Source: Escherichia coli (GTDB lineage: Bacteria; Pseudomonadota; Gammaproteobacteria; Enterobacterales; Enterobacteriaceae). From it: a DNA stretch of 64,000 bases. This document shows, piece after piece, positions 2,177 through 63,325 of the stretch (positions are counted from its first letter, which is position 1; every line of letters begins with the position of its first letter). The translations under genes and the position numbers were made by a program. The notes beneath the pieces were generated by a model. It saw nothing but the letters and a program-made list of their open reading frames with translations, had not been told where the DNA came from and made no database searches. Location of the stretch: assembly GCF_003991155.1 (NCBI RefSeq), contig NZ_CP031293.1, one strand, 5' to 3'.

Positions 2177-2179
2177 TTT

Positions 2180-5658: not shown

Positions 5659-5669
5659 ATATTGTGTCC

Positions 5670-6488: not shown

Positions 6489-6492
6489 GGCC

Positions 6493-7836: not shown

Positions 7837-7838
7837 TG

Positions 7839-9667: not shown

Positions 9668-9671
9668 AAAA

Positions 9672-12505: not shown

Positions 12506-12509
12506 CAGA

Positions 12510-14419: not shown

Positions 14420-14438
14420 ACTGAAGTCCTTGTACAAG

Positions 14439-14945: not shown

Positions 14946-15232
14946 AAGAATAATCCATAAGGTTATCATCCAGGCCATGAGCGCAGCATGTTCTGCATTT
15001 AAAAAATACAGCAAATACCAGCCCAATGGCAGTAAAAAAATAAAATTCTACACATTCATAGCGTCACATTCTACGCGCAGAAAAGCATTTGAAAAGAAAA
15101 TTTTCAAGGGGTATCCTTCCACGAAACAATAGGAACAACAAAAGACAAAGAAGCCTGAAACCATGCATGCCAAGCACGCAATGCCCAATAGTGAATTATG
15201 TAACTCATTGATTTTAGATCTTTGATCAAGAA

Positions 15233-15312
15233 ACATAAGGATTTCTTATGACTTACAGAATATATATAAATTCCGTGATTATAATTTGAAATAAAATAAG
15301 GATATCCTTATT
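15233..15312. promoter_or_regulatory. Divergent tssB/hcp promoter region with two ATAAGGAT-centred palindromes
   Basis: CATAAGGATTTCTTATG (15233..15249) and perfect 18-bp palindrome AATAAGGATATCCTTATT (15295..15312) in an AT-rich ~570 bp intergenic region. Confidence 0.35.
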
Positions 15313-15627
15313 TTTATCAAAGTGACAATTAAGAACAACAGAATATAATATATATTCATGATAAAGCCATGCCTTTTATAGATGGTGATTGAAAAACATT
15401 TACCAACCACTAGCGATCATCCACTCGTTGATTAAAGTTTAACTAAACAGAAAGTTTAAAATTTGTAAAAACAATTATTACGACAAGCGTTAATTCGCAT
15501 TGTCTGTAAATCAAGCACAGAGAAATGGTGTGGTTCTAGGCATGGACCGTATCGTTATCTGCCTGCCAGGGATTAATGGCAGGTCATCAGCAAGTTGTTG
15601 TTAAGAACATTCACAAGGAGTTTACAA

Positions 15628-16146
15628 ATGCCAACACCGTGTTATATCTCAATTACTGGTCAGACCCAGGGAAACATCACCGCAGGTGCATTTACTGCTG
15701 ATTCCGTCGGCAATATCTACGTGCAGGGCCATGAAGATGAAATGCTGGTGCAGGAATTCCTGCATAACGTCACCGTCCCGACGGACCCACAATCTGGCCA
15801 GCCAGCCGGACAGCGCGCTCACAAGCCATTTATCTTCACTGTGGCGCTGAACAAAGCAGTCCCCCTGCTGTACAACGCGCTGGCCTCCGGTGAAATGCTG
15901 CCTACCACTGAACTGCACTGGTGGCGTACCTCTGTGGAAGGCAAACAGGAACATTACTTCACTACCCGCCTGACAGACTCGACAATTGTTGATATGAAGT
16001 TGCATATGCCGCACTGCCAGGACCCGGCAAAACGCGAGTTCACCCAGTTACTCGAAGTTTCGCTGGCCTACCGCAAAATCGAGTGGGAACACGTTAAGTC
16101 AGGCACTTCTGGCGCTGACGACTGGCGTGCACCGCTGGAAGCATAA
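15628..16146 (+). CDS. hcp: Hcp (TssD) T6SS tube protein
   Basis: Start MPTPCYISITGQTQG at 15628 with AAGGAG RBS; 172 aa. Confidence 0.9.
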   Translation: MPTPCYISITGQTQGNITAGAFTADSVGNIYVQGHEDEMLVQEFLHNVTVPTDPQSGQPAGQRAHKPFIFTVALNKAVPLLYNALASGEMLPTTELHWWRTSVEGKQEHYFTTRLTDSTIVDMKLHMPHCQDPAKREFTQLLEVSLAYRKIEWEHVKSGTSGADDWRAPLEA

Positions 16147-16156
16147 GTTAAGACAA

Positions 16157-16190
16157 CAGCATCCGACCGTCTGGCCGGGTGCTGTTTTTG
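16157..16190 (+). terminator. Rho-independent terminator after hcp
   Basis: GC-rich hairpin (CAGCATCCG ... CGGGTGCTG) followed by TTTTTG. Confidence 0.5.
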
Positions 16191-16359
16191 TATTACACCG
16201 CAGGAAAAAAGGTTGTCAGTAAGGGGTTACGTTTTTACGGGAGATGGCGGATGCCGGATACTTCGGCGGTAGCGTGCCTGAAATCCAGCGTAACACTGTA
16301 CTGTCACAGCAACTGAACTGTGGAGTGTGTGTTTTCCTGTAAGCATCAGGGAGGTCTAA

Positions 16360-18348
16360 ATGTCATTAAAAGGATTGCGTTTTACGCTGAAAGTGGACGG
16401 CCAAAATGCGGACACCTTCGCCGTGGTAAATTTCTGGCTGATGCAGAATTTCTCGTTTCCATTTGTTATGGATGTAGATGTCGCCAGCAAGGAGTTTGGT
16501 ATTCAAGCAAATAGCTTGCTGGAAAAAAAAGCCACGCTGATCATCTGGCAGGGCCCCAAGGCGCTGCGTTATGTATCGGGTGTAATTGCCAGTTTCGGAA
16601 TGAAAGAAAACAATAACTGGCAGATGCAGTACCGCCTTCGTATCCAGCCACCTCTGTGGCGTAGCGGCCTACGCCAGAATTTCCGTATTTTTCAACAGCA
16701 AGATATTGCAACTATTTCAGCCACCTTACTGGATGAGAATGGTGTAACAGACTGGGAGCCATCCTTAAACAGTGAGCACCCTACTCGCGAGTTCTGCGTA
16801 CAGTATGGCGAAACGGACCTGGCATTTCTGTCACGGCTATGGGCAGAAGAAGGCATTTATTTTTATGATAAGTTAGCCCCGAACGGCCCGGATCAGAAAC
16901 TGACATTATGTGATGATGCAGCAGGTTTGTCGCCAATAGGAACCATTACCTTCAACCCAAATACCCGAACTGAAGCCGACAAGGAGTGCATCAATGCGTT
17001 TCATTACGAAGCTAATGTTCGTCCTTCATCAATACTGAGCAAAGACTACACCTTTAAAACCCCCGGCTGGGAAGGCAAATATATCCGACAGGGCGAGAAT
17101 CTGAACAACCAGTTTGAACAGTATGAAATCTATGACTACCCAGGACGTTTCAAGGATGAACAGCACGGGCAGGATTTTACCCGTTATCAGATGGATGGGT
17201 TGCGTAATGATGCGGAATTAGGCAGCGGTAGCAGCAATTCGCCGAGGCTATGGCCAGGAACCCGTTTCAAACTGGAGAACCATCCACAGAAAACCCTGAA
17301 CCGGGAATGGCAAGTGATCGGTAGCACACTAACGGGCGAACAGCCGCAGGCATTACATGGTAGCCAGGGTTACGGAACCTCGATGCATAACCAGTTTACT
17401 GTTATCCCGGCAGACCGTACCTGGCGTCCACAGCCAATGATGAAGCCAAAGGTAGATGGTCCACAAAGTGCCATTGTCACCGGTCCGGCTGGCGAGGAAA
17501 TTTTCTGCGATGAACATGGCCGGGTACGGGTGAAGTTTCACTGGGACAGAACCAAAACCAAAGATGAGAATAACTCCTGTTGGGTACGAGTGTCACAAGC
17601 CTGGGCTGGAGCCGGATTCGGCAACCTTGCCATTCCGCGTATAGACCAGGAAGTGATTGTCGATTTTCTTAACGGCGATCCCGACCAGCCCATCATCATG
17701 GGACGTACTTATCACCAGGATAACCGCTCTCCCGGTGGTCTGCCTGGCACCAAAACGCAGATGACTATCCGTTCAAAAACCTACAAAGGTGAGGGTTTTA
17801 ACGAACTACGTTTTGAGGATGCGACCAGTAACGAACAGCTTTATATGCACGCCCAGAAGGACATGGTGACAGAGGTACTGCATGACCGGACGACAACAGT
17901 GGATCACGACCATACCGAAACAGTGAAGAATAACCAGACGGTCACAGTAGTTGTTGGTCAGACGGTCAATGTGGGCAGTAAAAAAGAAGGCGGACACGAC
18001 CAGAAAGTGACGGTTGCCCACGACCAGACAGTCACGGTTCAGAACAACCAGACGCTGAATGTCACAGAAAAGCGTGAAAAAAATGTGGGTGGAGACCAGA
18101 AGGTCACTATCACTGGCGGCGATGATGAAACTGTCATGAAGTCGCAAAAGGTAACAGTAAAAGAAAACTATACGCTTGATGTCACCAAAGAAACGAAGAT
18201 TATTTCCGGCGAGTCGATTGAGCTTATCTGTGGCTCCTGCTCCCTGAAAATGGAAAAAGGTGGCAAGGTAACAATCTCCGGCTCAGAGTTTGATTTTACT
18301 GCTGGTGGCCTTGTGCATATCAACGGTAAAGACGTATTTATCAACTGA
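16360..18348 (+). CDS. vgrG: VgrG (TssI) spike protein, no C-terminal extension
   Basis: 662 aa; gp27/gp5-like; C-terminal beta-helical repeats (VTVAHDQTVTVQNNQTLNVTEKREKNVGGDQKVTITGGDDETV). Confidence 0.9.
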   Translation: MSLKGLRFTLKVDGQNADTFAVVNFWLMQNFSFPFVMDVDVASKEFGIQANSLLEKKATLIIWQGPKALRYVSGVIASFGMKENNNWQMQYRLRIQPPLWRSGLRQNFRIFQQQDIATISATLLDENGVTDWEPSLNSEHPTREFCVQYGETDLAFLSRLWAEEGIYFYDKLAPNGPDQKLTLCDDAAGLSPIGTITFNPNTRTEADKECINAFHYEANVRPSSILSKDYTFKTPGWEGKYIRQGENLNNQFEQYEIYDYPGRFKDEQHGQDFTRYQMDGLRNDAELGSGSSNSPRLWPGTRFKLENHPQKTLNREWQVIGSTLTGEQPQALHGSQGYGTSMHNQFTVIPADRTWRPQPMMKPKVDGPQSAIVTGPAGEEIFCDEHGRVRVKFHWDRTKTKDENNSCWVRVSQAWAGAGFGNLAIPRIDQEVIVDFLNGDPDQPIIMGRTYHQDNRSPGGLPGTKTQMTIRSKTYKGEGFNELRFEDATSNEQLYMHAQKDMVTEVLHDRTTTVDHDHTETVKNNQTVTVVVGQTVNVGSKKEGGHDQKVTVAHDQTVTVQNNQTLNVTEKREKNVGGDQKVTITGGDDETVMKSQKVTVKENYTLDVTKETKIISGESIELICGSCSLKMEKGGKVTISGSEFDFTAGGLVHINGKDVFIN

Positions 18349-18358
18349 GGCGTGAAAA

Positions 18359-19540
18359 ATGGAATTTCGTAATCTTACGCCGTTTTCAGTAATGCAATAT
18401 GCAATGGACGACAAACACAACGAGCGTCATTGTGTGGTCGCCATGAAAACCGGCTTCCGGCTGAAGCAGGACGAGAATGGTCAGTGGCAGGCACAACTGA
18501 TGGAAAACCCGCCATTGCCGCTCTGTGTGGAGGATGAGTATGCCGGGGAGATGAACACCTCTCCGGTACTGCGTGAAAGTGACCTTGCTCCTCTGAAACC
18601 CGCCTGTGACATCATCATCAACGGAACAGCTTATACGCCGGGAGGCGCTGCCGTGCCAGAAATGACGGCAGGCGTTCTTATGCTCTCATCGACAGGTGAG
18701 GTGCTGACAGACAAAAAACTGCGGATAACAGGCCAGCGTTTCTACAGGTACCAGCCGTTAATCCGCCAGTGGTATGAAACTGAACCGGAACCCTTCACCT
18801 CCCTGCCGCTTGACTACCGTTACGCTTTCGGCGGCGAATGCCGCGTGGAGGCAGGCAGCGAATATGCCAGCCGCGTCCCCGAAGAATATCGCCTGACCGA
18901 AGACCAGCGTCGGGAACACCCAAACCAGGAGAATCCACCACTGGCGCATATGGCCTGTCCGGTCAATCCACTCGGATTAGGCTATATGCAGCAGTGGTAT
19001 CTGCGGGCCTGTCAGGTTCAGCAGGTTGAAGCGCCCCGCATCATCGCCGTGGACAGCCCATTCACACTCAAACAGTTCACAGACTGTCTCGAAGGGAAAG
19101 CAGACTGGTTTGCCCCCGAATTTCAGCCAGCCGGTTTTGGCTGTATCGGGCGCGCCTGGCTGCCACGGTTATCTCTTGCTGGCACCTATGACCAGGAGTG
19201 GCTGGAAACACAACACCCCGACCTGCCGGATGATTTTGATTTTAACTACTGGAACTGCGCCCCGGATGACCAGCGCATCCCTTTTCCTCTGCCAGGACTG
19301 GGATTTGTACTGACGGGTTTTCGCCCGGAGGGCGATATCCGGTTCACCCTGCCCGCACATGAAGGACGCCTTCTGTTGCGCGCCATGAGCGGGCATCGAA
19401 TGCCATTACCCATGTTGCTGGATACGGTGGAAATCAATACTGACACCCTGACCGTGGCGCTGACCTGGCGCTTTCTGCTGCCCAACAGCACACCACCGGT
19501 GCGGGTACTGGAAGCCCGCTACAGAACAAGGAGCGCCTAA
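18359..19540 (+). CDS. DUF2169-family adaptor protein
   Basis: 393 aa between vgrG and PAAR-Rhs, the typical position for this adaptor family. Confidence 0.65.
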   Translation: MEFRNLTPFSVMQYAMDDKHNERHCVVAMKTGFRLKQDENGQWQAQLMENPPLPLCVEDEYAGEMNTSPVLRESDLAPLKPACDIIINGTAYTPGGAAVPEMTAGVLMLSSTGEVLTDKKLRITGQRFYRYQPLIRQWYETEPEPFTSLPLDYRYAFGGECRVEAGSEYASRVPEEYRLTEDQRREHPNQENPPLAHMACPVNPLGLGYMQQWYLRACQVQQVEAPRIIAVDSPFTLKQFTDCLEGKADWFAPEFQPAGFGCIGRAWLPRLSLAGTYDQEWLETQHPDLPDDFDFNYWNCAPDDQRIPFPLPGLGFVLTGFRPEGDIRFTLPAHEGRLLLRAMSGHRMPLPMLLDTVEINTDTLTVALTWRFLLPNSTPPVRVLEARYRTRSA

Positions 19541-19542
19541 GG

Positions 19543-22500
19543 ATGGCCGACAACTTTACAGCCCGTAAGCACGGACAATGGAAAGTCATCAGCACCAAAC
19601 CGGATGTCTGTAAAACACCACGCGGAGATTCCACACCGCCTGTCCCCTACCCTGTCACAGCCAATATGGCTGAAGCAGTGATGGTGGTGCAGTCGGTGAA
19701 GCTGAACGGCTGCCCGGCAGTGGTCCTAAACCAGAGCACCATCCCTCAGACAAAGGGCGATGCCGCAGGTGCGGCAAAAGGTGTCAGCAGCGGTACAGTG
19801 GGTGATGTCTGCGAGCCGCTGGACCACAGCGAGACAGTATTTTTTGGCGGCAAGCCGATACTGCGTCACCACGATGAGTTCTGGATGAACAGCCGTAACA
19901 CCATCGGCCTAATCGTGGGCCAGCCGCCACCGGCAGGCGTGCCTGCGGAAGAAGCGGACCCGCCGGATGAACCGGAGACGGAAGAAGAGGAAGAAAAGAG
20001 CAGCTGGCTGGACTGGGTGCAGACAGGACTGGATATTGCCGGGTTTGCACCGGGCTTTGGTTTTTTTGCCGATATGCTGAATGCGGGTATCAGCCTGGCG
20101 CGTGGTAATTATGCTGACGCGTTTATGTCTGTGGCGGCCTCACTTCCGGGGATAGGTGATGCGGCAGCGGCTGGCAGGATGGCAGTTAAAGGACGAAAAG
20201 CAGCAAAGGCGGCTAAAGAAGCCGCCGAACGAGCCGCAAAGAAAAAGCTGGAGAAGGAGGCGGCAATGCGCTCCCGTGCGCTGAGAAAAGCCCAGAAGAA
20301 AGCGGCAGCTAAAAAGAAAGGGGGTATCGTTAAGGGGAAAGCGAAAAATAACAAAGGCAAAGGTAAGGGTGCGGAAAGCAGTGATTGTACCAAACCCGGC
20401 GAACCCGTGGACGCCGGAACCGGCGACTTTCTCCAGCACTTCAGCGTTCTTTCCCTTCCCGGCTCACTTCCTCTCACGCTTTCCCGGTTTTACCGTTCTC
20501 AGGCACAACATGGCGGCATCTTTGGTCCCAAATGGACCGATGAATGGTCCGTATCCCTGAAGGTACACACTGACGGCAACCTGCACTTCACTGACGGTGA
20601 AGGGGTGGAACTGTACTACCCCATTCCGCAGGACGGCATTTTTGAGGGTGCAGCGAACTCCCGCCAGGCACACTACCGGCTGACGGGCGACATGAGCGGA
20701 GAACTGTCGTTGTCCGACCGCCGCACACAGCAGACACAGATTTTTTCTCAGGCAGGCACAGGTACTTATTTGCTGTCTGCCCTTCATGACAATTACGGCA
20801 ACCGGATTGATTTTATCCGCACGGACGGCCTGCTGACAGAAATCCGCCACAGCGACGGCTACACGCTCGCGCTTGCCTGGCTACAGCAGCAACTAATGAG
20901 CATTGACCTGGCAACACCGCGGCGTCAGCGCCTTGTCACCTGTCAGTACGATGATAATGGTTATCTGGCAGAGTGCGATACTTTCCAGTTTTCTCATCTG
21001 TGGCATGAATACACGACTGAAGGGTTTATGACCCGCTGGCGGGATACGGATAAAACCTGCGTGGATATCCGTTACGACCCGCAGGGGCGCGCCATCAGCA
21101 CCCTGTCAACCGAAGGCTATTACGACGACCGTTTTATCTATAACGATGAAGAGCACTGTACCACCTACGTGGATGCAGAAGGCGGCGAAACCCGTTACTG
21201 GTATAACGAAGACGGCCTGGTCACCCACAGCACCGACCCGCTGGGCCGTGAAGAGATTACAGTATGGGAAAACACGCAACTTCAGTCGCGCACCGACGCG
21301 CTGGGGCGTAAAACAGCGTATGAATATAACGATGAGGGCGATATCTGGCATGTTGCCCTGCCGGGCGGCTACAGCCTCTATTACGACTACAACGACGCCG
21401 GGCAGTTAACCCGCCTGACCCTGCCGGGCGACCAGGTATGGCTGTGGGACTACGACGATAAGGGCAGCATGGTCTGCCTGACCGACCCGCAGGGCCGGAA
21501 ACAGCAGTTCAGCTACAGCCAACAGGGTGATTTACTGGCGCGGATTATGCCGGGCGGAGCCACCTGGCGCTGGAGCCATGACGCCCTGCACCAGGTGCGC
21601 GAGACCACTGCGCCGGACGGCGGCGTCACGCAGACTGAACAGGATATGCTGGGCCGCCTGCTGAGTGTGAAAGACCCGCTGGGCTTCACCACGCAGTTCC
21701 GCCACAGCAAAACCCACGCTGGGCCGCTGGGCAGCGTGGAAGAAATTAACCGCCCGGATGGCGTGCGGGAACTGATGCGCCAGAACAGTGAAAAGCTGCC
21801 GGAGAGCTTCACCGATGGCGAAGGCAAAACCACCCGCTACGAATATGGTGCATTTGACCTGTTAACGGCAGTTATCCGCCCGGATGGTGAACGGCTGGAG
21901 TGCCGCTACGACAAGCTGACCCGCCTGACCGAAATCACCAACGCGGAAGGTGAGCACTACCGTCTGGAATATGATAAAGCCGGGCAGCTTATCGCGGAAA
22001 CCGACTTCACCGGGCGCACACTGACCTACAGCTACGATGCGGCAGGCCGCTGTACCCGCACCACCTTCCCGGACGGCACTCACCTGAACCGCCGCTACAA
22101 CGTGACCGACCAGGTAACGGACGAGGAAGTCACCCAGGGCGACAGCAACCGTACCCTGAGCGCCACCACCTTCCTCTATGACACGCTGTGCCGCCTGGTG
22201 GAGGCGAAAAACGATGATGCCATCGTTACGTATGAATATGACAGTGCCAGCAGGGTTGTGGCCGAGACAATCAACGGCAGGCGTACAGAATACAGTTACG
22301 ACAATAATCTCGACACAGTTTCACAGCGCACCACCGCAGGCATCACAGAGCACTTCACCCGCAACCTGATGGGCTATCTGACCACCTGGCAGATAGCCGA
22401 CCATGCCCCGCTGACATTTGAACATGACCTGCGCGGCATGGAAACGTCCCGACGCAGCGAGGCCGGGTTTTACCAGACGCTGGCTTACACCCGCACAGGA

Positions 22501-23961
22501 ATGCCAACGAAGCAGAATGCCGGGGACCACCGGGCCGGCTCGGATGAGCGGAATAAAAGCCTGAAGCGCCAGTGGCTGTATGACAAAGCGTATAATCTGA
22601 CCGCAATCGCCGACTCGCTGCGCGGCTCCATGTTCAACACCATCACGGCGAACGACCAGATAAGCCACGCCACCTGGACGGGTGATTCCAGTCAGTTTCC
22701 GCTGTGTGAGGAACTGTTCACTTACGACAAAAACCTGAACATCACCCGCCGCCAGACCCGGGTGAATGACATACTGGAAAGCGAAACGCACCAGCAGAAC
22801 CGGCATGGACGGGTGATATCAAGTGAGCATGAAGGCTGGCGGCACTCAACGCACCGCATCAATCCGCAGACAGGAAAACCGGAAGAAGGGAAATTTGTCC
22901 GGGTGGTGAACGCCCATAACGTCACCTGGAAATACGATGTTAACGGCAGGCTGATACAGAAGCTGGTCGATAAAGGCGGTTACCGACCGCTGGAATGGCG
23001 CTACAGATGGGACGCGCGCAGCCAGCTAACCGGGCTGGAAACCCCGGATGGTGAACGCTGGGAATACAAATACGACCCCTTCGGCAGGCGCATCAGCAAG
23101 CGCTGCACCAACCGCGACAAACCCGGTATGGATTTTCACTGGAATGGCGACCAGTTGACGGAGGAAATTCCGGTCGGCGCTGACAGTAGTCCTGATACTG
23201 AAAACAGCATCCGCTGGATATATGAGCCGGGAAGTTTTACACCGATTGCGCGTTATGAGAAGGGGCAACTGCATTATGCAGTGACGAACACGGTTGGCCG
23301 CGTACAGGAACTGCTGACAGAAAACGGCCTGATAGTCTGGAAAGGCAAGCAGCAGCTATGGGGCCGTGAGGAAGGCAGAAATAAGAAAGATGCGCCCACA
23401 TGCCGGTTACGTTTTCCGGGGCAGTACGAGGATGTGGAATCAGGGTTGTACTATAACCGGTTCCGGTACTATGATTGCGAGACAGGACAATATCTGTGTG
23501 CTGATCCGTCAGGATTGGACGGAGGGATTAATCCATATGGGTATGTGCATAATCCATTAGGGTGGGCAGACCCTTTTGGGCTAGCCAAAAAGAACGCTCA
23601 GAATACAGTTTTCAGATATCTGAGTGCAGACGATCGTATTCGATATGAGAATGGTCAAAGTTTATTACCTAAAGGTGAGTTTGGTTCAATAGTTGAACAT
23701 GTTGATGGAAAAAATACAGGACATATTTCTGCATCGCTTACCAAGTGTGCAGCTAAAATATTTGATTCGGGCAATGGGTATATAGAAATTGATGTTCAAA
23801 AAATTATCGACAGTGGTATATCATTTATTGATCACAAGAATGTTATGCAAGCGGTTCGTCGTAGCGGCTCTTTAACTAACAGGAGAGATGCCGAAAGAGC
23901 ACTAGAAGTTCTCTTCAAAGGTGAAATTCCCTTTGATGCAATTATTCGTCATGTTATATAA
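19543..23961 (+). CDS. rhs: PAAR-like/Rhs repeat effector with variable C-terminal toxin domain
   Basis: 1472 aa; N-terminal PAAR-like region, Lys/Ala-rich linker, YD repeats, core ending in DPSGLDGGINPYGYVHNPLGWADPFGL, then ~125 aa unique C-terminus. Confidence 0.9.
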   Translation: MADNFTARKHGQWKVISTKPDVCKTPRGDSTPPVPYPVTANMAEAVMVVQSVKLNGCPAVVLNQSTIPQTKGDAAGAAKGVSSGTVGDVCEPLDHSETVFFGGKPILRHHDEFWMNSRNTIGLIVGQPPPAGVPAEEADPPDEPETEEEEEKSSWLDWVQTGLDIAGFAPGFGFFADMLNAGISLARGNYADAFMSVAASLPGIGDAAAAGRMAVKGRKAAKAAKEAAERAAKKKLEKEAAMRSRALRKAQKKAAAKKKGGIVKGKAKNNKGKGKGAESSDCTKPGEPVDAGTGDFLQHFSVLSLPGSLPLTLSRFYRSQAQHGGIFGPKWTDEWSVSLKVHTDGNLHFTDGEGVELYYPIPQDGIFEGAANSRQAHYRLTGDMSGELSLSDRRTQQTQIFSQAGTGTYLLSALHDNYGNRIDFIRTDGLLTEIRHSDGYTLALAWLQQQLMSIDLATPRRQRLVTCQYDDNGYLAECDTFQFSHLWHEYTTEGFMTRWRDTDKTCVDIRYDPQGRAISTLSTEGYYDDRFIYNDEEHCTTYVDAEGGETRYWYNEDGLVTHSTDPLGREEITVWENTQLQSRTDALGRKTAYEYNDEGDIWHVALPGGYSLYYDYNDAGQLTRLTLPGDQVWLWDYDDKGSMVCLTDPQGRKQQFSYSQQGDLLARIMPGGATWRWSHDALHQVRETTAPDGGVTQTEQDMLGRLLSVKDPLGFTTQFRHSKTHAGPLGSVEEINRPDGVRELMRQNSEKLPESFTDGEGKTTRYEYGAFDLLTAVIRPDGERLECRYDKLTRLTEITNAEGEHYRLEYDKAGQLIAETDFTGRTLTYSYDAAGRCTRTTFPDGTHLNRRYNVTDQVTDEEVTQGDSNRTLSATTFLYDTLCRLVEAKNDDAIVTYEYDSASRVVAETINGRRTEYSYDNNLDTVSQRTTAGITEHFTRNLMGYLTTWQIADHAPLTFEHDLRGMETSRRSEAGFYQTLAYTRTGMPTKQNAGDHRAGSDERNKSLKRQWLYDKAYNLTAIADSLRGSMFNTITANDQISHATWTGDSSQFPLCEELFTYDKNLNITRRQTRVNDILESETHQQNRHGRVISSEHEGWRHSTHRINPQTGKPEEGKFVRVVNAHNVTWKYDVNGRLIQKLVDKGGYRPLEWRYRWDARSQLTGLETPDGERWEYKYDPFGRRISKRCTNRDKPGMDFHWNGDQLTEEIPVGADSSPDTENSIRWIYEPGSFTPIARYEKGQLHYAVTNTVGRVQELLTENGLIVWKGKQQLWGREEGRNKKDAPTCRLRFPGQYEDVESGLYYNRFRYYDCETGQYLCADPSGLDGGINPYGYVHNPLGWADPFGLAKKNAQNTVFRYLSADDRIRYENGQSLLPKGEFGSIVEHVDGKNTGHISASLTKCAAKIFDSGNGYIEIDVQKIIDSGISFIDHKNVMQAVRRSGSLTNRRDAERALEVLFKGEIPFDAIIRHVI

Positions 23962-35582: not shown

Positions 35583-35676
35583 GGTGGTCATTCTGGTGGT
35601 CTTGACAATCTCGATTTTTTGTTTTAGCTTACCAATCAGCCAGTTAATGGCTACGGCGATCCCAGTCAGAGGAGCC
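35583..35676 (+). repeat. Island-end repeat copy 1, ending in the tRNA-Asn 3'-terminal 15-mer
   Basis: ~94 bp near-identical to 48837..48930 and to the reverse complement of 63231..63325; ends CCAGTCAGAGGAGCC, matching the tRNA-Asn acceptor/T-arm 3' end. Confidence 0.8.
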
Positions 35677-35682
35677 CAATTT

Positions 35683-38008: not shown

Positions 38009-38084
38009 TCCTCTGTAGTTCAGTCGGTAGAACGGCGGACTGTTAATCCGTATGTCACTGGTTCGAGTCCAGTCAGAGGAGCCA
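38009..38084 (+). tRNA. asnV: tRNA-Asn (anticodon GTT)
   Basis: 76 nt TCCTCTGTAGTTCAGTCGGTAGAACGGCGGACTGTTAATCCGTATGTCACTGGTTCGAGTCCAGTCAGAGGAGCCA; cloverleaf consistent, anticodon GTT at 38042..38044; gene symbol inferred from position next to nac. Confidence 0.9.
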
Positions 38085-40388: not shown

Positions 40389-40682
40389 TTACATGGAAGC
40401 AACATACTCCATTAAATTATCTAATAAAAAATCAACCTTACTTATACCTTCATTTACATTATCGGCATAGATAAGTTCTACGAGCTTCATCCAACTTAAA
40501 TTGGAACGTACATTGTATTGTAAAAGGAGCCACTCTCTAAATCCCTCTAACATTTTACCGTCAAAGGAAAAATCCATCCCTAGTATAAAAGCCACAGTGT
40601 TTTCATAGTTATTTTCAAGTAGATACATATCGATATGCTTCTTAAAAAAAACAATTTTTTTTAGGAGGATATTTTTATTCAT
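40389..40682 (-). CDS. Putative immunity protein for orphan rhs toxin
   Basis: 97 aa, start 3 nt after the toxin stop, AT-rich. Confidence 0.5.
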   Translation of the reverse strand: MNKNILLKKIVFFKKHIDMYLLENNYENTVAFILGMDFSFDGKMLEGFREWLLLQYNVRSNLSWMKLVELIYADNVNEGISKVDFLLDNLMEYVASM

Positions 40683-40684
40683 AA

Positions 40685-41400
40685 TTAAAATCCAAAATTG
40701 ATTGCATCAGGATATTGCCATAACTCTTTATATTCTTGTAATGGTAAACCGTCTGAGCCAGTAAAGGCATCATAAACCCGACCATCTTTTACTACAACGT
40801 CGTGATATGCCCAACCGGGATTCGTGCCTCTGTATTTACCTAATGAAGGAGCTCCGAAATCAGGTCTAATTCTTGCAATATCACCACCGATTTTCTTTTG
40901 TACCCACAATGCAAAATCTTCACAACCATTCCAGTTCTCAGAATTTTTAATATCCGCAGCCTTCCATACACAATCAGCGTTAAGGCCTAATGGATCAATC
41001 CAATTTAACGGATCTTTGACGTAACTGTATGGATTAATACCTCCCAACACCCCGGTTGGATCTGCCGAAATATACTGCGCAGTATCAGGATCATAGTACC
41101 GGAACCGGTTATAGTACAGTCCTGATTCGGCATCTTCATACTGCCCCGGAAAACGCAGGCGGCAGTCAGGTGCATCATCCCTGTTCCTGCCTTCTTCCCG
41201 GCCCCAGAGCTGTTGTTTTCCCCGCCAGACAATGGTGCCGCCCTCGGTCAGCAGTTCCTGGACACGGCCGACCGTATCCGTCACCGCGTAATGCAACAAG
41301 CCTTTCTCATAACGCGCCAGCGGTGTAAAACTTCCCGGTTCGTATATCCAGCGGATGGCGTTTTCATCATCTGGCTTGCCGTCCTGGCTGACCGGAATTT
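40685..41400 (-). CDS. Orphan rhs C-terminal cassette with Cys/His/Asp-containing toxin tip
   Basis: ORF 40685..41299, rhs-core similarity extends to ~41400; DPLGL motif then a unique ~95 aa C-terminus. Confidence 0.7.
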
Positions 41401-41442: not shown

Positions 41443-41784
41443 TTAAAAATCGGAATGATCCATATATTCTATATGCTCATCAGAAAGTCCATCTGGATAT
41501 AACTCTCTTGGATAATCACTATCTAAAATTGCTAGGAAGTTATTTATAGTATTTTCCAATGCCTCATCTACTGTTTTTCCCCAGCCAATAGCACCTTCGG
41601 GACAATCATCAAATTTCCGTTTAATCATTACATTTGTAATCCCCATGTAACTCCCATCCTGAGACTCTCGTATTTTTATTTTTACTTTTGCGCTAGGGAT
41701 AACACCAAACATCCAAATTACAAACTCGGCTTCAACTTTCTCTACTTTAGATACACTGCGTATTTTCATTTGATGCCAGCCCAT
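41443..41784 (-). CDS. Putative immunity protein for Rhs2 toxin
   Basis: ATG start MGWHQMKIRSV at 41784 with AGAGGA RBS, 11 nt after the Rhs2 stop. Confidence 0.5.
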   Translation of the reverse strand: MGWHQMKIRSVSKVEKVEAEFVIWMFGVIPSAKVKIKIRESQDGSYMGITNVMIKRKFDDCPEGAIGWGKTVDEALENTINNFLAILDSDYPRELYPDGLSDEHIEYMDHSDF

Positions 41785-41794
41785 ATCTTTTCCT

Positions 41795-44700
41795 CTATAA
41801 ACGACCAAAAGAGACAATTTCCCCTGTATCTACCGCAACATCAATATATCTTCCGTTCTTTCTATATCTCCACACATTTTCAGTATAACCAGAAACTTTG
41901 GTTGGTTTTATTCTTCTCAAGTTCTCAGAAAAAACCTTAGCTTTATTTAGATATTGCTCTACCGTTTCTGCACCAACTTCACGACCATGTTTTCTGAAGT
42001 GCTCCAGTAATGACTCTGCCGGAGTATCCCAACTTCCTTTACTCCATAGTTTTTTACAATTTACTTCTTGCAGGAATGCAAATAATGCCGATAAACCTAA
42101 AGGGTCAATATAACTAAATGGGTTCTGTACATATGAATATGGATTTAATCCCCCAAGTAACCCAATGGGATCTGCCGAAATATACTGCGCCGTATCAGGA
42201 TCATAGTACCTGAACCGGTTATAGTACAGTCCTGATTCCGTATCTTCGTACTGCCCCGGAAAACGCAGGCGGCAGTCAGGCGCATCATCCTTGTTTCTGC
42301 CTTCTTCCCGGCCCCAAAGTTGCTGTTTTCCCCGCCAGACAATCGTGCCGTCTTCGGTCAGCAACTCCTGGACACGACCGACCGTATCCGTCACCGCGTA
42401 ATGCAGCAAGCCTTTCTCATAACGTGCCAGCGGTGTAAAACTTCCCGGTTCATATATCCAGCGAATGGCATTTTCATATTCTGGTTTGCCATCAGTACCA
42501 ACAGGAATTTCTTCGGTTAACTGATCGCCATTCCAGTGGAAATCCATTCCGGACTTATCACGGTTGGTACACCGTTTGCTGATGCGCCTGCCAAACGGGT
42601 CGTATTTATACTCCCAGCGTTCCCCCTCCGGCGTTTCAAGCCCGGTAAGCTGACTTCTGGCATCCCAGCGATAGCGCCATTCGAGCGGACGATAGCCGCC
42701 TTTATCGACCAGTTTCTCCACCAGGCGACCATTAGCATCGTACGTCCAGGTAATATTGTGCTCATTCACCACCCGGACAAATTTTCCCTCTTCCGGCTTT
42801 CCTGTGTCCGGGTTGATGCGGTGTGTCTGATGCCGCCAGCCTTTGTGCTCTCTGGAAACAACTCTTCCATGCCGCAACTGCTGGTGTGTCTCGCTTTCCA
42901 GCACCTCATTTACCCATGTCTGGCGGCGGGCAATATTCAGGTTTTTGTCATAAGTGAACAGTTCCTCACACAGCGGAAACTCCCGGGAATCGCCCGTCCA
43001 GGTGGCATGGCTTACCTGGTCGTTAACCGTCATATTGTTGAAGGCTGATCCCCGCAGCGAGTCTGATATTACCGTCAGGTTGTACGCCTTGTCATACAGC
43101 CACTGGCGCTCCAGGCTTTTGTTCCGTTCGTACGGCCCGGCCTGGTGGTCCCCGGCATTCTGCTTCGCTGGCATCCCTGTGCGCGTGTATGCCAGCGTCT
43201 GGTAAAACCCGGCCTCGCTCCGCCTGGACGTTTCCAGGCCGCGCAGGTCGTGCTCAAATGTCAGCGGGGCATGGTCCGCTATCTGCCAGGATGCCAGATG
43301 CCCCATCAGGTTTCGGGTAAAGCGTTCTGTGATACCTGCTGTGGTGCGCTGTGTGACCGTATCCAGGTCAGGGTCGTAACGGTATTCTGTGCGCCTGCCG
43401 TTCAGCGTTTCGGCAACAATCTGGTTTGCATCGTTATATTCAAATGTAACGGTGGCATCGTCATTCTTCGCTTCCACCAGACGACGCTGCGTGTCGTAAC
43501 GAAATGTGGTGACACTCAGAGTTCGGTCACTGTTGCCCTGTGTGACTTCCTCGTCCGTCACCTGGTCATTCACGTTGTAGCGGCGGTTAAGGTGAGTGCC
43601 GTCCGGGAAGCTGGTGCGAATACAACGCCCGACGGCATCGTAGGTGTAGTTCAGCGTGCGTCCGGTGAAGTCTGTTTCTGCTACAAGCTGCCCGGCTTTA
43701 TCATATTTAAGACGGTAGCGCTCGCCTTCGGCGTTGGTAATTTCGGTCAGGCGGGTCAGTTTATCGTAGCGACACGCCAGCCGCTCGCCGTCAGGACGCA
43801 CCAGAGCCGTGAGCAGATCGAATGCACCGTATTCGTAACGGGTGGTTTTGCCCTCGCCATCGGTAAAGCTTTCCGGTAGCTTTTCGCTGTTCTGGCGCAT
43901 CAGTTCCCGCACGCCGTCCGGGCGCTGGATTTCTTCCACGCAGCCCTGTGGCCCGGCGTGGATTTTGCTGTGACGAAACTGCGTGGTGAAGCCAAGTGGG
44001 TCTTTCACACTTAACAGTCGGCCCAGCATATCCTGTTCGGTCTGCGTGATGCCGCCGTCTGGCGCAACAGTCTCGCGCACCTGATGCAGGGCGTCATGAC
44101 TCCAGCACCAGGTGGCCCCGCCCGGCAGAATCCGTGCAAGCAAATCACCCTGTTCACTGTAGCTGAACTGCTGTTTCCGGCCCTGAGGGTCGATCAGGCT
44201 GATTATGCTGCCCCGATCATCATAGACCCATTGCCACGCCTGATTATCAGTTGTCGACAGCCGGGTTAACTGACCGGTATCATTATACTCGTAGAACAGG
44301 CCATAGCCGCCCGGCAGGGCAACCTGGATAACCTCACCTTCCCGGTTATAGCGGTACGCCGTGGTACGCCCCAGCGCATCGGTGCGTGACTGAAGCCGGG
44401 CATTATTCCAGACGGTAATTTCTTCCCGCCCCAGCGGATCGATACAGCGGGTGACCAGGCCGTCCTCGTTATACCAGTAACGGGTTTCGCCCCCTTCTGC
44501 ATCCAGGTAGGTGGTGCATTTTTCATCATCGTTATAGATAAAGCGGTCATCGAAGTAGCCTTCCGTTGACAGTGTGCTGACAGCGCGCCCCTGCGGATCA
44601 TAGCGGATATCCACACAGGTTTTGTCCGTATCCCGCCAGCGGGTCATAAAGCCTTCTGATGTGTACTCATGCCATAAATGCGAGAACTGGAAGGTATCGC

Positions 44701-45985
44701 ATTCTGCCATAAAACCATTGTCATCATACTGGCAGGTCACAAGACGCTGACGCTGCGGCGTTGCCAGGTCAATGCTCATCAGCTGAGCCTGTTGCCAGGC
44801 AAGGGCGAGCATATAGCCATCGCTGTGACGGATTTCTGTCAGCAGACCATCAGTGCGGATAAAATCAATCCGGTTGCCATAATTATCGAAGACAGCGGAC
44901 AACCGCCAGACGCCATTGCCTGCCGGGGAAAAGAGCTGTGTCTGCTGCGAACGGCGATCGAAAACGCTCACGCCATCGCGCAGGCTTCCCGTCAGCCGGT
45001 AGTACGCCTGGCGTGAGTTCACTGCACCGCGAAAGATACCGTCCTGCGGCAGGCGGTAATACAGTACAACGCCTTCACTGTCGGTAAAATGCAGCCGGTT
45101 ACCCTGTATCGTCAGCGACGCTGACCACTCATCGGTCCATTTCGGGCCGAAAATCCCGGTCCCCCTGGCCTGTGAGCGGTAAAAACGCGAGAGCGTCAGC
45201 GGCAGGGAACCCGGCAGCGAAAGCACGCTGAAATGCTGGAGAAAATCGCCGGTGCCAATATCCACAGGCTCACCGGGTTTGGTGCACAACTGAGCACCAA
45301 CACATTTACTCTGATCACCAGTTCCCTCGGTTTCACCTTTAATATTTGCGCCATCCTGGCCTTCGGGTATGACATCATCCGCCAACTTTTCTGCGTCACT
45401 GACAACATCGTCTGCTTTGTTTACCTTCAGCAGATCGGCGGTGAATTTCCCCGCCGCTGCTTCTTCTCGTGCCAGTTTACTGGCAGTCCGCATCGCTCTA
45501 AGACCCACGAACCCGCCTCGGGCCAGACCATATCCTCCCAGCGCCAGCGAGCCATGGTCATAAATCATGCCGCCAATTTCCTGGTTCCTGTTGCTCATTT
45601 CCAGACGGTACATGTCCAGATTGAAATCTCCCGCATGCTCCCGGAGATCTCCGCCCATGTTGTACATATCCTCGCCAATATCATCCATGCCCATCGCAGA
45701 AAGCATGGCGCCGTTCATCTGCATTTCTCCGGCATACTGCATGGTGGCCCCCTGGCCTATCATCGTCGCCATATCCGGGAACTGGTTCCAGAATGCTTTG
45801 GCAGCACCAATAGCCAAATCAAGCTGGACTGCCGAAGCTTCAATTTTCGCCCGACTTTCATCCATCTGGATCATCAACATCATGTCCCAGATACTTTGCT
45901 CTTCTTTTGTTTCTGGCTCTGGCGCAGGGTCAGCTTCGCTGGCGGAAATAGCGGCTTCAGGGGGCTGACCGATAATTAAACCCGT
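41795..45985 (-). CDS. rhs: Rhs repeat effector 2, 5'-truncated by the IS3-family element
   Basis: ORF 41795..45883; frame stays open upstream to the IS end (~45985) and encodes ...GLIIGQPPEAAISASEADPAPEPETKEE, matching the linker after the PAAR domain of Rhs1; YD repeats; DPIGLLGGLNPYSYVQNPFSYIDPLGL then a unique C-terminus. Confidence 0.85.
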   Translation of the reverse strand, partial: TGLIIGQPPEAAISASEADPAPEPETKEEQSIWDMMLMIQMDESRAKIEASAVQLDLAIGAAKAFWNQFPDMATMIGQGATMQYAGEMQMNGAMLSAMGMDDIGEDMYNMGGDLREHAGDFNLDMYRLEMSNRNQEIGGMIYDHGSLALGGYGLARGGFVGLRAMRTASKLAREEAAAGKFTADLLKVNKADDVVSDAEKLADDVIPEGQDGANIKGETEGTGDQSKCVGAQLCTKPGEPVDIGTGDFLQHFSVLSLPGSLPLTLSRFYRSQARGTGIFGPKWTDEWSASLTIQGNRLHFTDSEGVVLYYRLPQDGIFRGAVNSRQAYYRLTGSLRDGVSVFDRRSQQTQLFSPAGNGVWRLSAVFDNYGNRIDFIRTDGLLTEIRHSDGYMLALAWQQAQLMSIDLATPQRQRLVTCQYDDNGFMAECDTFQFSHLWHEYTSEGFMTRWRDTDKTCVDIRYDPQGRAVSTLSTEGYFDDRFIYNDDEKCTTYLDAEGGETRYWYNEDGLVTRCIDPLGREEITVWNNARLQSRTDALGRTTAYRYNREGEVIQVALPGGYGLFYEYNDTGQLTRLSTTDNQAWQWVYDDRGSIISLIDPQGRKQQFSYSEQGDLLARILPGGATWCWSHDALHQVRETVAPDGGITQTEQDMLGRLLSVKDPLGFTTQFRHSKIHAGPQGCVEEIQRPDGVRELMRQNSEKLPESFTDGEGKTTRYEYGAFDLLTALVRPDGERLACRYDKLTRLTEITNAEGERYRLKYDKAGQLVAETDFTGRTLNYTYDAVGRCIRTSFPDGTHLNRRYNVNDQVTDEEVTQGNSDRTLSVTTFRYDTQRRLVEAKNDDATVTFEYNDANQIVAETLNGRRTEYRYDPDLDTVTQRTTAGITERFTRNLMGHLASWQIADHAPLTFEHDLRGLETSRRSEAGFYQTLAYTRTGMPAKQNAGDHQAGPYERNKSLERQWLYDKAYNLTVISDSLRGSAFNNMTVNDQVSHATWTGDSREFPLCEELFTYDKNLNIARRQTWVNEVLESETHQQLRHGRVVSREHKGWRHQTHRINPDTGKPEEGKFVRVVNEHNITWTYDANGRLVEKLVDKGGYRPLEWRYRWDARSQLTGLETPEGERWEYKYDPFGRRISKRCTNRDKSGMDFHWNGDQLTEEIPVGTDGKPEYENAIRWIYEPGSFTPLARYEKGLLHYAVTDTVGRVQELLTEDGTIVWRGKQQLWGREEGRNKDDAPDCRLRFPGQYEDTESGLYYNRFRYYDPDTAQYISADPIGLLGGLNPYSYVQNPFSYIDPLGLSALFAFLQEVNCKKLWSKGSWDTPAESLLEHFRKHGREVGAETVEQYLNKAKVFSENLRRIKPTKVSGYTENVWRYRKNGRYIDVAVDTGEIVSFGRL

Positions 45986-45992
45986 CGTATTA

Positions 45993-47244
<1,252 letters not shown>

Positions 47245-47493
47245 CCACTACACATAGCAAGGGGAAAAGGTGGATGGGAGCCAACTAAGTTACAAAATTT
47301 TGATCCTGAATTTGGCAGAAAACTACAAGCAATAAATAACGCGTTAAGGAATGGACGGATAGAATTTGCTCATGCACAGGTTTTTTTACGCAATGATGGC
47401 TCTGTTAATGCTGCAGTAGGCATTGGTAGCGGAATACAGTGGAATACCTGGTAATAATAGTATGTGTATATAACGAATAAAGGAGTCCATTTT

Positions 47494-48426
47494 ATGGCAG
47501 CAAGCAAAACAAAAAACAGACTGGAAAAAATGCTTCCTCGCGTTTATAGCTGGGCACAGAGCGGCAGCCAATCAGTAACCGCCCCTGAGTTTAACTATAT
47601 GGAACAATATATTAATGGTCAATCTGAACTTTTCATGGCATTAATTCATTTATATGGACTTGGCATGAGTGAAGCTGCATTAAGCTTACTGGAAGCCAAA
47701 CAGTCTATGGCTTCTTCTGTTATCCATATGAGTTATGGATTCTCTCGAATGCTTCATTCTGATGGCATTAATATATTGAGTTTAAAAGAAAGCAAGGCAA
47801 CTATTACTTCAGGCTTGGATTTCGTCACACATAGTATGCTTGGAGCAATTGCGCTGGGTATGCCCGCTCTGACGAAAAAATTTCACCAGATTGTTTTTAC
47901 TGCTCTTGAGAAAGGGTATGGCATTGTAAATGCGCATGAAGATCCTGGCCCAGAAACTTTACGCTATGCTGCTATGGGACTTTCCATCATTAATGACTGG
48001 CTACAGATCCCCCTGGATTTAGATAAGCTGGGACTGCCACGCGATCCGGCCTGGGGGCTTCTGGTCAAACACTGGAATAACCCTGATCCCGTTAAATTAC
48101 AATCGGTTCTGTATGATGCCTGTGATATCCATATAGAACGTATCGCGTTAACAGAACGTGAAGTTTATACCGGTAACTTTGAATTTGGCTCTCCGTTTGA
48201 AGCCGTTCACCCAACAGAGATTCTGGCGGTATTGCGCCTGAGAGACATGCTGAATCTGCCCAATCCGACATTAGACCATCCGCTGATGAACACACCTTAT
48301 GCCCAAATCACCACCACTCCGGGCCAGGTCACTCAGCCGGACAGTCTGCTAGAAACCTTTCTGGCTAAGGCCCGTGAACGGGATCCAGAGGTCATGGCCG
48401 AATGGGATCGGGTTCAGGTGGATTAA
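47494..48426 (+). CDS. Hypothetical protein (possible immunity or adaptor)
   Basis: ORF 47464..48426; probable start MAASKTKNRLEK at 47494 with AAAGGAG RBS; no family recognised. Confidence 0.5.
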   Translation: MAASKTKNRLEKMLPRVYSWAQSGSQSVTAPEFNYMEQYINGQSELFMALIHLYGLGMSEAALSLLEAKQSMASSVIHMSYGFSRMLHSDGINILSLKESKATITSGLDFVTHSMLGAIALGMPALTKKFHQIVFTALEKGYGIVNAHEDPGPETLRYAAMGLSIINDWLQIPLDLDKLGLPRDPAWGLLVKHWNNPDPVKLQSVLYDACDIHIERIALTEREVYTGNFEFGSPFEAVHPTEILAVLRLRDMLNLPNPTLDHPLMNTPYAQITTTPGQVTQPDSLLETFLAKARERDPEVMAEWDRVQVD

Positions 48427-48453
48427 TTTGGTACTGGATACAAAGGATAGATA

Positions 48454-48717
48454 ATGAAACCATTAATAACGCTTGGGGATAAAACATCTCATGGTGGTGT
48501 TGTAATTAGTGCCAGTGCAAATTTTTTGCATGAGGGACAGCCTGTCGCCTGTGATGGTGACCAGGTAACTTGTCCGATAGAAGGCCATGGGCCAGCAAAA
48601 ATCATAGCATCTGGACAGGGGTTTTCTATAAATGGGAAACAGGCTGCACATGATGGCGATAAAACAACCTGTGGGGCAACGCTGATAGCCAGTCATTTTA
48701 TTGTGCGTCATAAGTAA
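48454..48717 (+). CDS. Stand-alone PAAR-domain protein
   Basis: 87 aa with three PAAR-like motifs (LGDKTSHGG; CDGDQVTC; HDGDKTTCG). Confidence 0.8.
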   Translation: MKPLITLGDKTSHGGVVISASANFLHEGQPVACDGDQVTCPIEGHGPAKIIASGQGFSINGKQAAHDGDKTTCGATLIASHFIVRHK

Positions 48718-48836
48718 CTAATACCAAAATAACTCTATGATTAAAAAGGCTGATATATATGCTGGAAGTAGACAGACTACCGGAAACAGTACGACGGTGA
48801 CAGGGTGAACCAAAGGGTTAGGCGCATTTTAAAAAG

Positions 48837-48930
48837 GTGGTCATTCTGGTGGTCTTGACAAACTCGATTTTTTGTTTTAGCTTATCAATCAGCCTGTTAA
48901 AGGCTAAGGCGATCCCAGTCAGAGGAGCAA
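48837..48930 (+). repeat. Island-end repeat copy 2 with tRNA-Asn 3'-end 14-mer (probable attR of the asnV island)
   Basis: Near-identical to 35583..35676; ends CCAGTCAGAGGAGC (one mismatch to the tRNA 3' end after that). Confidence 0.8.
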
Positions 48931-49243
48931 AATTCTAAAAATTCGCTTTTTTAGCGCAATATCACTGACCTTAGTTGAGCATTGCTTTTTAATGGATAGC
49001 GGGTTTTTGACATCTTAAGCGCCCTCGACCTTTATGGTTGAGGGCGTTTTGCTATGAACGCCATCACCATTTTCCCCTCGATTATAAAACTTGAGTAATT
49101 CAGTAGTCTCCCCTCTTGCAACTCACACCCAAAACTGCTTAACGAAAAGTTATTAATTTTCAATCATATTGCTATCAGGATTTATATTTTTTCGCTGTGC
49201 TAGAAAGGGCGCATTTATGTTAGCTCGTTCAGGGAAGGTAAGC

Positions 49244-63230: not shown

Positions 63231-63325
63231 TGGCTCCTCTGACTGGGATCGCCGTAGCCTTTAACAGGCTGATTGATAAGCTAAAACAAAAAATCGAGTT
63301 TGTCAAGACCACCAGACTGACCACC
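63231..63325 (-). repeat. Island-end repeat copy 3 with truncated tRNA-Asn 3' end (pseudo-tRNA / attR)
   Basis: Reverse complement matches copies 1 and 2; 63231..63246 is the tRNA 3' 16-mer; it is followed on the minus strand by the same flank that follows asnV (aattttagt[c/t]ttgagacatctc). Confidence 0.8.

Follow-up and report, generated by a model that had tools for sequence, protein, structure and literature searches.

We examined a window of 64,000 nucleotides (nt) from Escherichia coli (the whole stretch of DNA analysed, contig NZ_CP031293.1), in which an IS3-family insertion sequence (IS) is followed by a short gene remnant, a gene for a protein of 310 amino acids (aa) and a gene for a PAAR protein. 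This three-feature module, which is the end of a tRNA-Asn island, is in our estimate (a probability of roughly 0.8) the distal end of a mobile auxiliary type VI secretion system (T6SS) cassette, of which the toxin has been lost and an orphan immunity gene and a spare PAAR gene are left. The features of the module are the following:

47253..47454, plus strand: 3' remnant, 66 codons and a stop, of the gene of a T6SS cargo effector of ~617 aa (identity with the E. coli contig L005, alignment with the C-terminus of a Salmonella protein)
47480..47485, plus strand: Shine-Dalgarno sequence (AAGGAG) of the 310-aa gene, 8 nt upstream of the start codon (read from the sequence; conserved in E. coli L005)
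47494..48426, plus strand: intact gene of the 310-aa protein, predicted to be the cognate immunity protein, now an orphan (RefSeq hypothetical protein WP_197706531.1)
48454..48717, plus strand: stand-alone 87-aa PAAR, T6SS spike tip and final gene of the cassette (Pfam PF05488; RefSeq PAAR domain-containing protein)

Intact cassettes in related bacteria

Tracing the homologues of the 310-aa protein to their contigs gave the loci with which the module can be compared. The order VgrG, DUF4123 protein, protein of ~280 aa, effector, one or more homologues of the 310-aa protein and PAAR is found in Salmonella enterica (L002-L004), an E. coli draft genome (L006 + L005), Serratia marcescens (L009) and P. 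aeruginosa (L010). The original prediction, a reading of the letters of the window, had suggested looking for intact loci with both the fragment and the 310-aa protein, and these are such loci. Their genes are as follows:

First gene: VgrG, 675-685 aa
Second gene: protein of 192-197 aa in the DUF4123 position (Pfam DUF4123 match in three loci out of four; no such match recorded for Serratia L009)
Third gene: protein of 270-282 aa, no Pfam match
Fourth gene: effector of about 606-640 aa, no Pfam match
Fifth gene: one to three homologues of the 310-aa protein, ~305-312 aa each
Sixth gene: PAAR, 87-88 aa

At the window locus the VgrG and DUF4123 genes are absent and the IS abuts the effector stub; the locus is a remnant and not a working cassette. 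A gene for a Phage_int_SAM_2/Integrase_1 protein of 287-294 aa is found near the cassette in Salmonella (L002, 1-329), E. coli (L006, 181-1065) and Serratia (L009, 11366-12229), which suggests that the cassette itself is a small mobile unit.

Concerning the two genes between VgrG and the effector, DUF4123 adaptors are described by Colautti et al. as two-lobed, with the N-terminal lobe on the spike and the C-terminal lobe on the effector, and the TseT system has the two lobes as separate genes, TecT and co-TecT (PMC11582642). The ~195-aa DUF4123 protein and its ~280-aa partner fit such a split-adaptor layout. By analogy with Tap and TecT/co-TecT, this split adaptor would load the effector on the spike of VgrG and PAAR, and since the PAAR of the cassette has no extension and VgrG stands at the cassette head, tethering to VgrG seems more likely, as with Tap proteins. 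A PADLOC scan of both adaptor-position proteins gave no match.

The effector remnant

From position 47253 (CATAGCAAGG...) the window agrees with the effector gene of E. coli GCA_033744675.1 (L005) at its 3' end, base for base through the alignment end at 47500; the wider blast match to this contig is 99.4% identical. In L005 the frame of the remnant runs on upstream, and the end of L006 abuts the start of L005 exactly. Joined, these two contigs of E. coli ONI83 give a full-length effector gene, the product of which matches the 606-aa Salmonella protein across the join; the remnant aligns to the C-terminus of the same Salmonella protein. The translation of the remnant reads IARGKGG WEPTK...GIQWNTW (IARGKGGWEPTK...), and its stop codon is located at 47452-47454. 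The original prediction had recognised here a C-terminal piece of 59 codons with a missing 5' part. Its frame, stop and truncation stand; its length does not, as the piece has 66 codons, the first seven of which had been omitted (identity with L005 begins at 47253). With 58 in-frame codons of the remnant, NCBIfam gave no match.

The remnant contains neither a start codon nor the catalytic core of the effector (E424, D460, E508 and K510 are all absent; the last motif is kept) and codes only for the helices and strands at the end of the C-terminal domain. Because it starts past the ExK strand, it cannot be active.

The intact effector family

The effector has 37 full-length homologues, all of which are named 'hypothetical' and have no precomputed Pfam domain; with these, the assignment of the remnant is far beyond chance. 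A match of the 310-aa protein to a housekeeping family, combined with a fragment without homologues, had been named in advance as the outcome that would speak against such a locus. We found the 310-aa protein without any Pfam match and the fragment with the homologues just given.

Aligning 25 members of the effector family gave the following invariant motifs for the C-terminal ~215 residues: G-x-x-G-E-E (E424), N-x-S-x-x-G-x-D (D460), PPPP, E508-x-K510-T-x-L-G and H580-x-Q582. The AlphaFold (AF2) model of the effector has a mean predicted local distance difference test score (pLDDT) of 71, and its C-terminal domain is mostly at 70-90. In this model E424 is located in helix 408-433, D460 just before strand 461-464, E508 and K510 in strand 504-513, and Q582 in strand 576-585; this placement of E, D, ExK and Q is the alpha-beta-beta-beta-alpha order of the PD-(D/E)xK core. 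According to Zhang et al. (2012), 'E, D, ExK, Q' is the signature of Tox-REase-1, the immunities of which are Imm-PA2201 and Imm49 (PMC3482391). Judged from motifs and model, the activity of the effector is most likely, although unproven, that of a nuclease. The invariant E..D..ExK..Q would thus mark a PD-(D/E)xK domain that cuts nucleic acid in the target cytoplasm. The other possibility is that E, D and ExK serve some other chemistry or the structure, in which case the 310-aa protein would still be an immunity protein, to another activity. A Foldseek search of the PDB with the full-length effector model gave no match at E<=0.001; with the motifs in the order of the nuclease core, we consider a non-nuclease unlikely.

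Relatives of the toxin domain were seen only on the cargo effector and, remotely, on Rhs proteins: a search for Rhs/CdiA fusions with the profile of the effector C-terminal domain returned only truncated members of the same family, and a word-indexed search found no close toxin-domain fusions. Many genomes, of Pseudomonas, Burkholderia and Yersinia pseudotuberculosis and from metagenomes, have proteins of 126-405 aa that match the C-terminal part of the effector only (P0155-P0183). Some of these entries are marked partial or come from very short contigs, and not necessarily all of them are truncated genes; even so, it appears that truncated toxin stubs are common in this family.

Concerning the N-terminal region, most of the full-length effectors begin with a conserved P-x-P...C-x-x-C...GVPF motif (alignment columns 28-37), which is followed by long, poorly modelled hydrophobic helices (Salmonella residues ~170-300). 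This may be a loading or membrane-translocation region. The start codon used here for the Salmonella effector leaves out the CxxC motif.

The 310-aa protein

The open reading frame (ORF) at 47494..48426 had been described as well initiated, and this is borne out by the AAGGAG listed above and by RefSeq, which annotates the same ORF. The 310-aa protein has 175 homologues at E<=1e-3, and a profile search of 1.84 billion representatives gave 805 matches to the family at the same threshold; the protein of the window keeps all invariant residues of the family alignment.

From its gene order and predicted structure, this protein is best read as a cognate immunity protein rather than an adaptor. In every intact cassette, across the four genera, its gene is located directly 3' of the effector, and the intact loci contain one to three tandem paralogous copies of it. 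There are three in E. coli L005 (99.7, 81.6 and 86.1% identical to the 310-aa protein of the window) and three in Serratia L009, and several Pseudomonas contigs have several paralogues. The predicted structure (pLDDT 89.5, predicted template modelling score, pTM, 0.91) is all-alpha. The closest fold is that of the immunity protein PA2201 (PDB 2FEF), and the two-domain all-alpha fold of PA2201 is present in the prediction.

Two remote relatives of the 310-aa protein also speak for immunity. The gene of one comes directly after that of a 1582-aa Rhs protein; the gene of the other overlaps the end of the ORF before it, which runs off the contig. In both cases the C-terminus of the upstream product carries GxxGE...GxDL...E-V-K...W and matches the effector profile in hhalign, at E=0.003 and 0.0007, the motifs being in register.

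Read by eye, the 310-aa protein has no hydrophobic signal-like N-terminal stretch and is thus likely to be cytoplasmic, which fits immunity to a toxin that acts in the cytoplasm; as an all-alpha cytoplasmic protein it would bind and block the toxin domain in the producer and its kin. The ratio of non-synonymous to synonymous substitution rates (dN/dS) of the gene against its relatives is 0.05-0.27, which indicates purifying selection.

The original prediction had left the choice between an immunity protein and an effector adaptor. The first is much better supported, by position, copies, fold and Rhs-linked relatives. An adaptor or chaperone that links effector and neighbouring PAAR in the manner of TecT and PAAR4 would suit the position of the 310-aa gene directly upstream of the PAAR gene in every cassette and the helical nature of the protein, which it has in common with many chaperones, and PAAR-directed adaptors do exist (PMC11582642). 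We nevertheless regard an adaptor as very improbable. The adaptor slots between VgrG and the effector are already held in the intact cassettes by the DUF4123 protein and its ~280-aa partner, and two or three diverged copies in tandem, 81-86% identical in E. coli, are usual for immunity genes and not for adaptors. The nearest fold is that of an immunity protein, the remote relatives come right after an Rhs toxin and have no PAAR gene alongside, and the 87-aa PAAR, of which the Pfam domain takes up residues 7-79, offers an adaptor no extension to grasp.

The IS3 element and the decay of the locus

Two further features bound the module on its left side:

45995..47252, plus strand: IS3-family insertion sequence, orfA/orfB with programmed frameshift (NF033516, inverted repeats, RefSeq)
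41795..45992, minus strand: Rhs toxin gene, cut at its 5' end by the IS (frame open to the IS; intact version in L007)

The OrfB protein of the IS scores 264 bits against NF033516 (cut-off 160 bits), and the programmed frameshift of the transposase is annotated by RefSeq. The terminal inverted repeats are 30 nt long (45991-46020 and 47227-47256) and 83% complementary; the ends are IS911-like (TGTAGTGGCAC...) and ambiguous by 2 bp. The IS sits between two unrelated 5'-truncated genes (Rhs on the left, effector on the right), and no target-site duplication was found, the left flank ...GTATTA(TG) and the right flank (CA)TAGCAAGG showing no repeat.

A search of 5,426 complete E. coli genomes with positions 47245-48760, a query that took in the final bases of the IS, gave 26 carriers, all of which matched the whole query at 100% identity. 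The module is always in its decayed form among these carriers, and the right IS junction is the same in all 26. A distant-mode search of the complete E. coli genomes with the 310-aa gene returned only the same 26, with one 100% copy each. Concerning the left side, the first 119 codons of the Rhs gene (PAAR-like domain) are gone in the window and in 24 of the 26 carriers, and RefSeq annotates the truncated gene as a 1362-aa protein from an internal ATG. The Rhs protein is complete, 1517 aa with a PAAR-like N-terminal domain, in the other two carriers, of which L007 is one; there the IS is located 418 bp further from Rhs, with the right junction unchanged. A third arrangement is seen in E. coli PK12 (L015), where the same truncated Rhs protein (WP_077252459.1) is beside the IS, and a truncated DUF2169 gene and other island genes are found right of the IS instead of the cassette remnant. 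In L008, a relative without the IS, DUF2169 is directly upstream of the Rhs gene.

The absence of a target-site duplication and the three junction combinations in E. coli point to IS-associated deletions, and a simple insertion of the IS was rejected on the same two grounds. The compared junctions show a series of IS3-associated deletions, through recombination between copies or adjacent deletion. Set against the intact loci, these deletions took the DUF2169 accessory gene and the genes between, VgrG, the two adaptor genes and ~90% of the effector gene, with the immunity and PAAR genes staying intact. An effector-immunity-PAAR locus disrupted by the IS, as first proposed, therefore holds as far as the locus is concerned, which exists intact in four genera; the disruption was not a simple insertion, and the IS marks deletions. 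An IS-truncated T6SS effector with surviving immunity and PAAR genes is an ordinary kind of genome decay. Two features annotated as 'hypothetical' thereby gain a history: the tRNA-Asn island once held two T6SS weapons, both disarmed by the IS3 element, and is left with the gene of a likely antidote and a spare spike tip.

Some details of the junctions and of the sister islands can be added. At the left junction (45986-45999) the two bases TG stand between the Rhs sequence and TGTAGTGG; they are explained neither by the intact Rhs sequence nor by the L007 junction (...AATAC/TGTAGTGG; L007 10100-10119). The stop TGA of the IS3 orfB (47242-47244) is in frame with the effector remnant, and this single stop parts the transposase from the 66-codon tail; the shared frame is probably a coincidence. 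The sister islands in PK12 (L015, 7768-12699) and L008 (10049-14701) contain DUF2169, ash, HTH and HigA genes and a gene for a 294-aa 'integrase domain' protein right of Rhs.

The PAAR gene

The third gene of the module had been described as that of an 87-aa PAAR protein, and it contains the full domain: the match to Pfam PAAR_motif PF05488 (E=5e-24) covers model positions 1-70 of 70 and protein residues 7-79. The match to NCBIfam NF033420 (E=9.5e-8) is under the cut-off of that model. A PAAR protein of 87-88 aa is found at the same position in L002, L005, L009 and L010, and the dN/dS of the gene against Salmonella is 0.045.

A resident T6SS core (TssA, ClpV (TssH), TssL, TssK, TagH, TssG, TssF and TssC) and a VgrG are encoded in the same window at 748-18348, the core genes on the minus strand and VgrG (16360-18348) on the plus strand. 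With these, the PAAR could still cap a spike; it may be usable as a spare tip for this system, which is encoded 25-47 kb upstream in the window.

Weighing of the cassette reading

A number of results weigh against the module being the end of a T6SS cassette with an orphan immunity gene. Concerning the families, the intact effector has no Pfam match even at E<=10 and no match in a PADLOC scan. For the 310-aa protein there is likewise nothing in Pfam at E<=10 and no match in NCBIfam or PADLOC; a Pfam scan of 40 close and remote members of its family gave no family at E<=0.001, and a Pfam scan of the toxin C-termini beside the remote relatives gave no match. Sequence and profile searches of the PDB with the effector and the 310-aa protein, using both alignments, returned only chance-level Bcl-2 and Rpo11, and the match to PA2201 is structural only, at 6% identity. 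Concerning present function, the resident VgrG is 58% identical to the cassette VgrG and diverges past about residue 500. No sigma-70-like promoter was predicted on the plus strand from the IS to the 310-aa gene in a scan of 47100-49200, in which no terminator was found, and with all 26 carriers 100% identical there is no evidence of selection within the orphan state.

The lack of a predicted promoter and the identity of the 26 carriers over 1.5 kb, by which the arrangement may be young, would also suit a functionless and unexpressed relic that persists through recent deletion and clonality; E. coli PK12, with the same island type, is without the module altogether. We think such a relic rather improbable. 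Both ORFs are full length, with ribosome-binding sites and all family-invariant residues, and the immunity gene differs from the copy of E. coli ONI83 by six synonymous changes and one non-synonymous change. The carrier genomes come from varied sources (cattle, chicken, dog, mink, pig, humans and wastewater), orphan T6SS immunity genes are documented (PMC6688995), and read-through or an outward promoter from the IS could provide for expression. As the remainder of a cassette, the 310-aa gene would now give orphan immunity, protecting the cell from neighbours that still fire the effector.

Comparison with known systems

The DUF1910+DUF1911 fold is that of the experimentally proven PoNi immunity to PoNe PD-(D/E)xK DNases (Jana et al. 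2019, PMC6688995). PoNe/PoNi, which is equivalent to Tox-REase-1 with Imm-PA2201 (PMC3482391), has several traits in common with the pair studied here: a toxin with E, D, ExK and Q that is predicted to be of PD-(D/E)xK type, a putative immunity gene for an all-alpha protein right downstream, linkage to a T6SS VgrG module and the occurrence of orphan immunity copies. The structure nearest to the predicted fold of the 310-aa protein, PA2201 (2FEF), is the structural prototype of DUF1910+DUF1911/PoNi. Unlike PoNe and PoNi, neither the effector nor the 310-aa protein matches Pfam up to E=10 (DUF1910, DUF1911 and Imm49 included), and the effector is a ~620-aa stand-alone cargo protein with an N-terminal region of its own. 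In view of the missing Pfam match, the 310-aa family is not a member of DUF1911 or Imm49 by sequence criteria; the protein would be PoNi-like in its working and is not classifiable as PoNi. The name 'Immunity protein 49' is found for only one UniRef cluster (P0096), and membership in Imm49, backed by this cluster name and no model match, was rejected. The effector and 310-aa families seem to form a remote PoNe/PoNi-like pair with a split DUF4123 adaptor.

A second system of comparable layout is that of TseT in the H2-T6SS of P. aeruginosa. TseT is assigned to Tox-REase-5. This family is paired with Imm52 (Zhang et al., PMC3482391). The TseT-TsiT/TecT/co-TecT/PAAR4 system (Burkinshaw et al. 2018, summarised in PMC11582642 and PMC7376260) has in common with the cassette a cargo effector of nuclease type (predicted for the cassette), a short DUF4123 protein and a second adaptor-like gene just upstream (split adaptor), and a dedicated immunity gene and small PAAR gene in the same cassette. 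There are also differences: the effector studied here has no Pfam match; the PAAR, unlike PAAR4, is the last gene, with 87 aa and no C-terminal extension, and VgrG heads the cassette; and the window itself has lost the adaptors and VgrG. Membership in TseT/TsiT was rejected, as there is no REase-5 match, the PAAR is of another type and only the split-adaptor layout is common to both.

Known orphan T6SS immunity genes and displaced toxin stubs, with Rhs/CdiA orphan modules and immunity arrays among them, likewise have an intact immunity gene beside a catalytically dead 3' toxin stub. Unlike in those modules, the stub studied here comes from an IS3-associated deletion and not from displacement by incoming toxin-immunity cassettes, and a PAAR gene is kept with the immunity gene.

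A wider proposal would be that the 310-aa family is a large immunity superfamily that the searched libraries do not cover, a remote cousin of PoNi, which is paired with an equally unrecognised clade of PD-(D/E)xK toxins occurring as VgrG cargo (with a split DUF4123 adaptor) or as Rhs tips, and that E. coli retains the gene as protection from Salmonella, Serratia and E. coli carriers of the toxin. We hold this tentatively, at slightly short of even odds.

What is new is mildly so: an effector family and a large immunity family for which there is no Pfam, NCBIfam or PADLOC model or name. The understanding of T6SS effector-immunity systems is unchanged by the finding. The effector (~620 aa) and immunity (~310 aa) families are found in Salmonella, Serratia, Pseudomonas, Burkholderia, Pectobacterium and others, and describing both of them would improve the annotation of T6SS effectors. 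In its decayed form, the E. coli locus also offers a natural case for testing if an orphan immunity gene gives protection from the attack of other species.

The tRNA-Asn island and its surroundings

The island that ends with the module is marked by the following two features:

38009..38084, plus strand: tRNA-Asn gene, left island boundary and integration site (ARAGORN, RefSeq; an integrase gene is next to it)
48912..48930, plus strand: imperfect copy of the tRNA-Asn 3' end, attR-like (pattern search, 16 of 19 bases match, 0 expected by chance)

The copy at 48912-48930 stands 195 bp past the PAAR gene and ahead of an adhesin gene, and is likely, from its sequence, to be the right boundary of a ~10.9-kb island that starts at the tRNA-Asn gene. 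Following the tRNA-Asn gene, the island contains a tyrosine integrase gene, a RelE/ParE toxin-antitoxin pair, an orphan C-terminal Rhs piece accompanied by a small ORF, the large minus-strand Rhs gene, the IS3-family element and then the remnant, the 310-aa gene and the PAAR gene. In RefSeq NZ_CP048609 the module is also located between the tRNA-Asn gene and a gene for a giant Ig-like adhesin, which is followed by shiA and amn.

The orphan Rhs C-terminal piece (204 aa, within 40389-41299, minus strand) starts in the end of the conserved core, and a 97-aa ORF follows it; the two are a displaced toxin/immunity pair, located downstream of the main Rhs gene with its 124-aa ORF (41443-41817). Besides the gene at 38009-38084, further imperfect copies of the tRNA-Asn 3' end are present at 35659-35677 and, on the minus strand, at 63231-63249; together with the copy at 48912-48930, this suggests that several islands integrated here one after another at Asn-tRNA sites.

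On the plus strand after the resident VgrG there is a 393-aa ORF (18359-19540, no match in NCBIfam), followed by a 1472-aa ORF (19543-23961). In their layout these two resemble the DUF2169 and PAAR-like-Rhs pair of L008.

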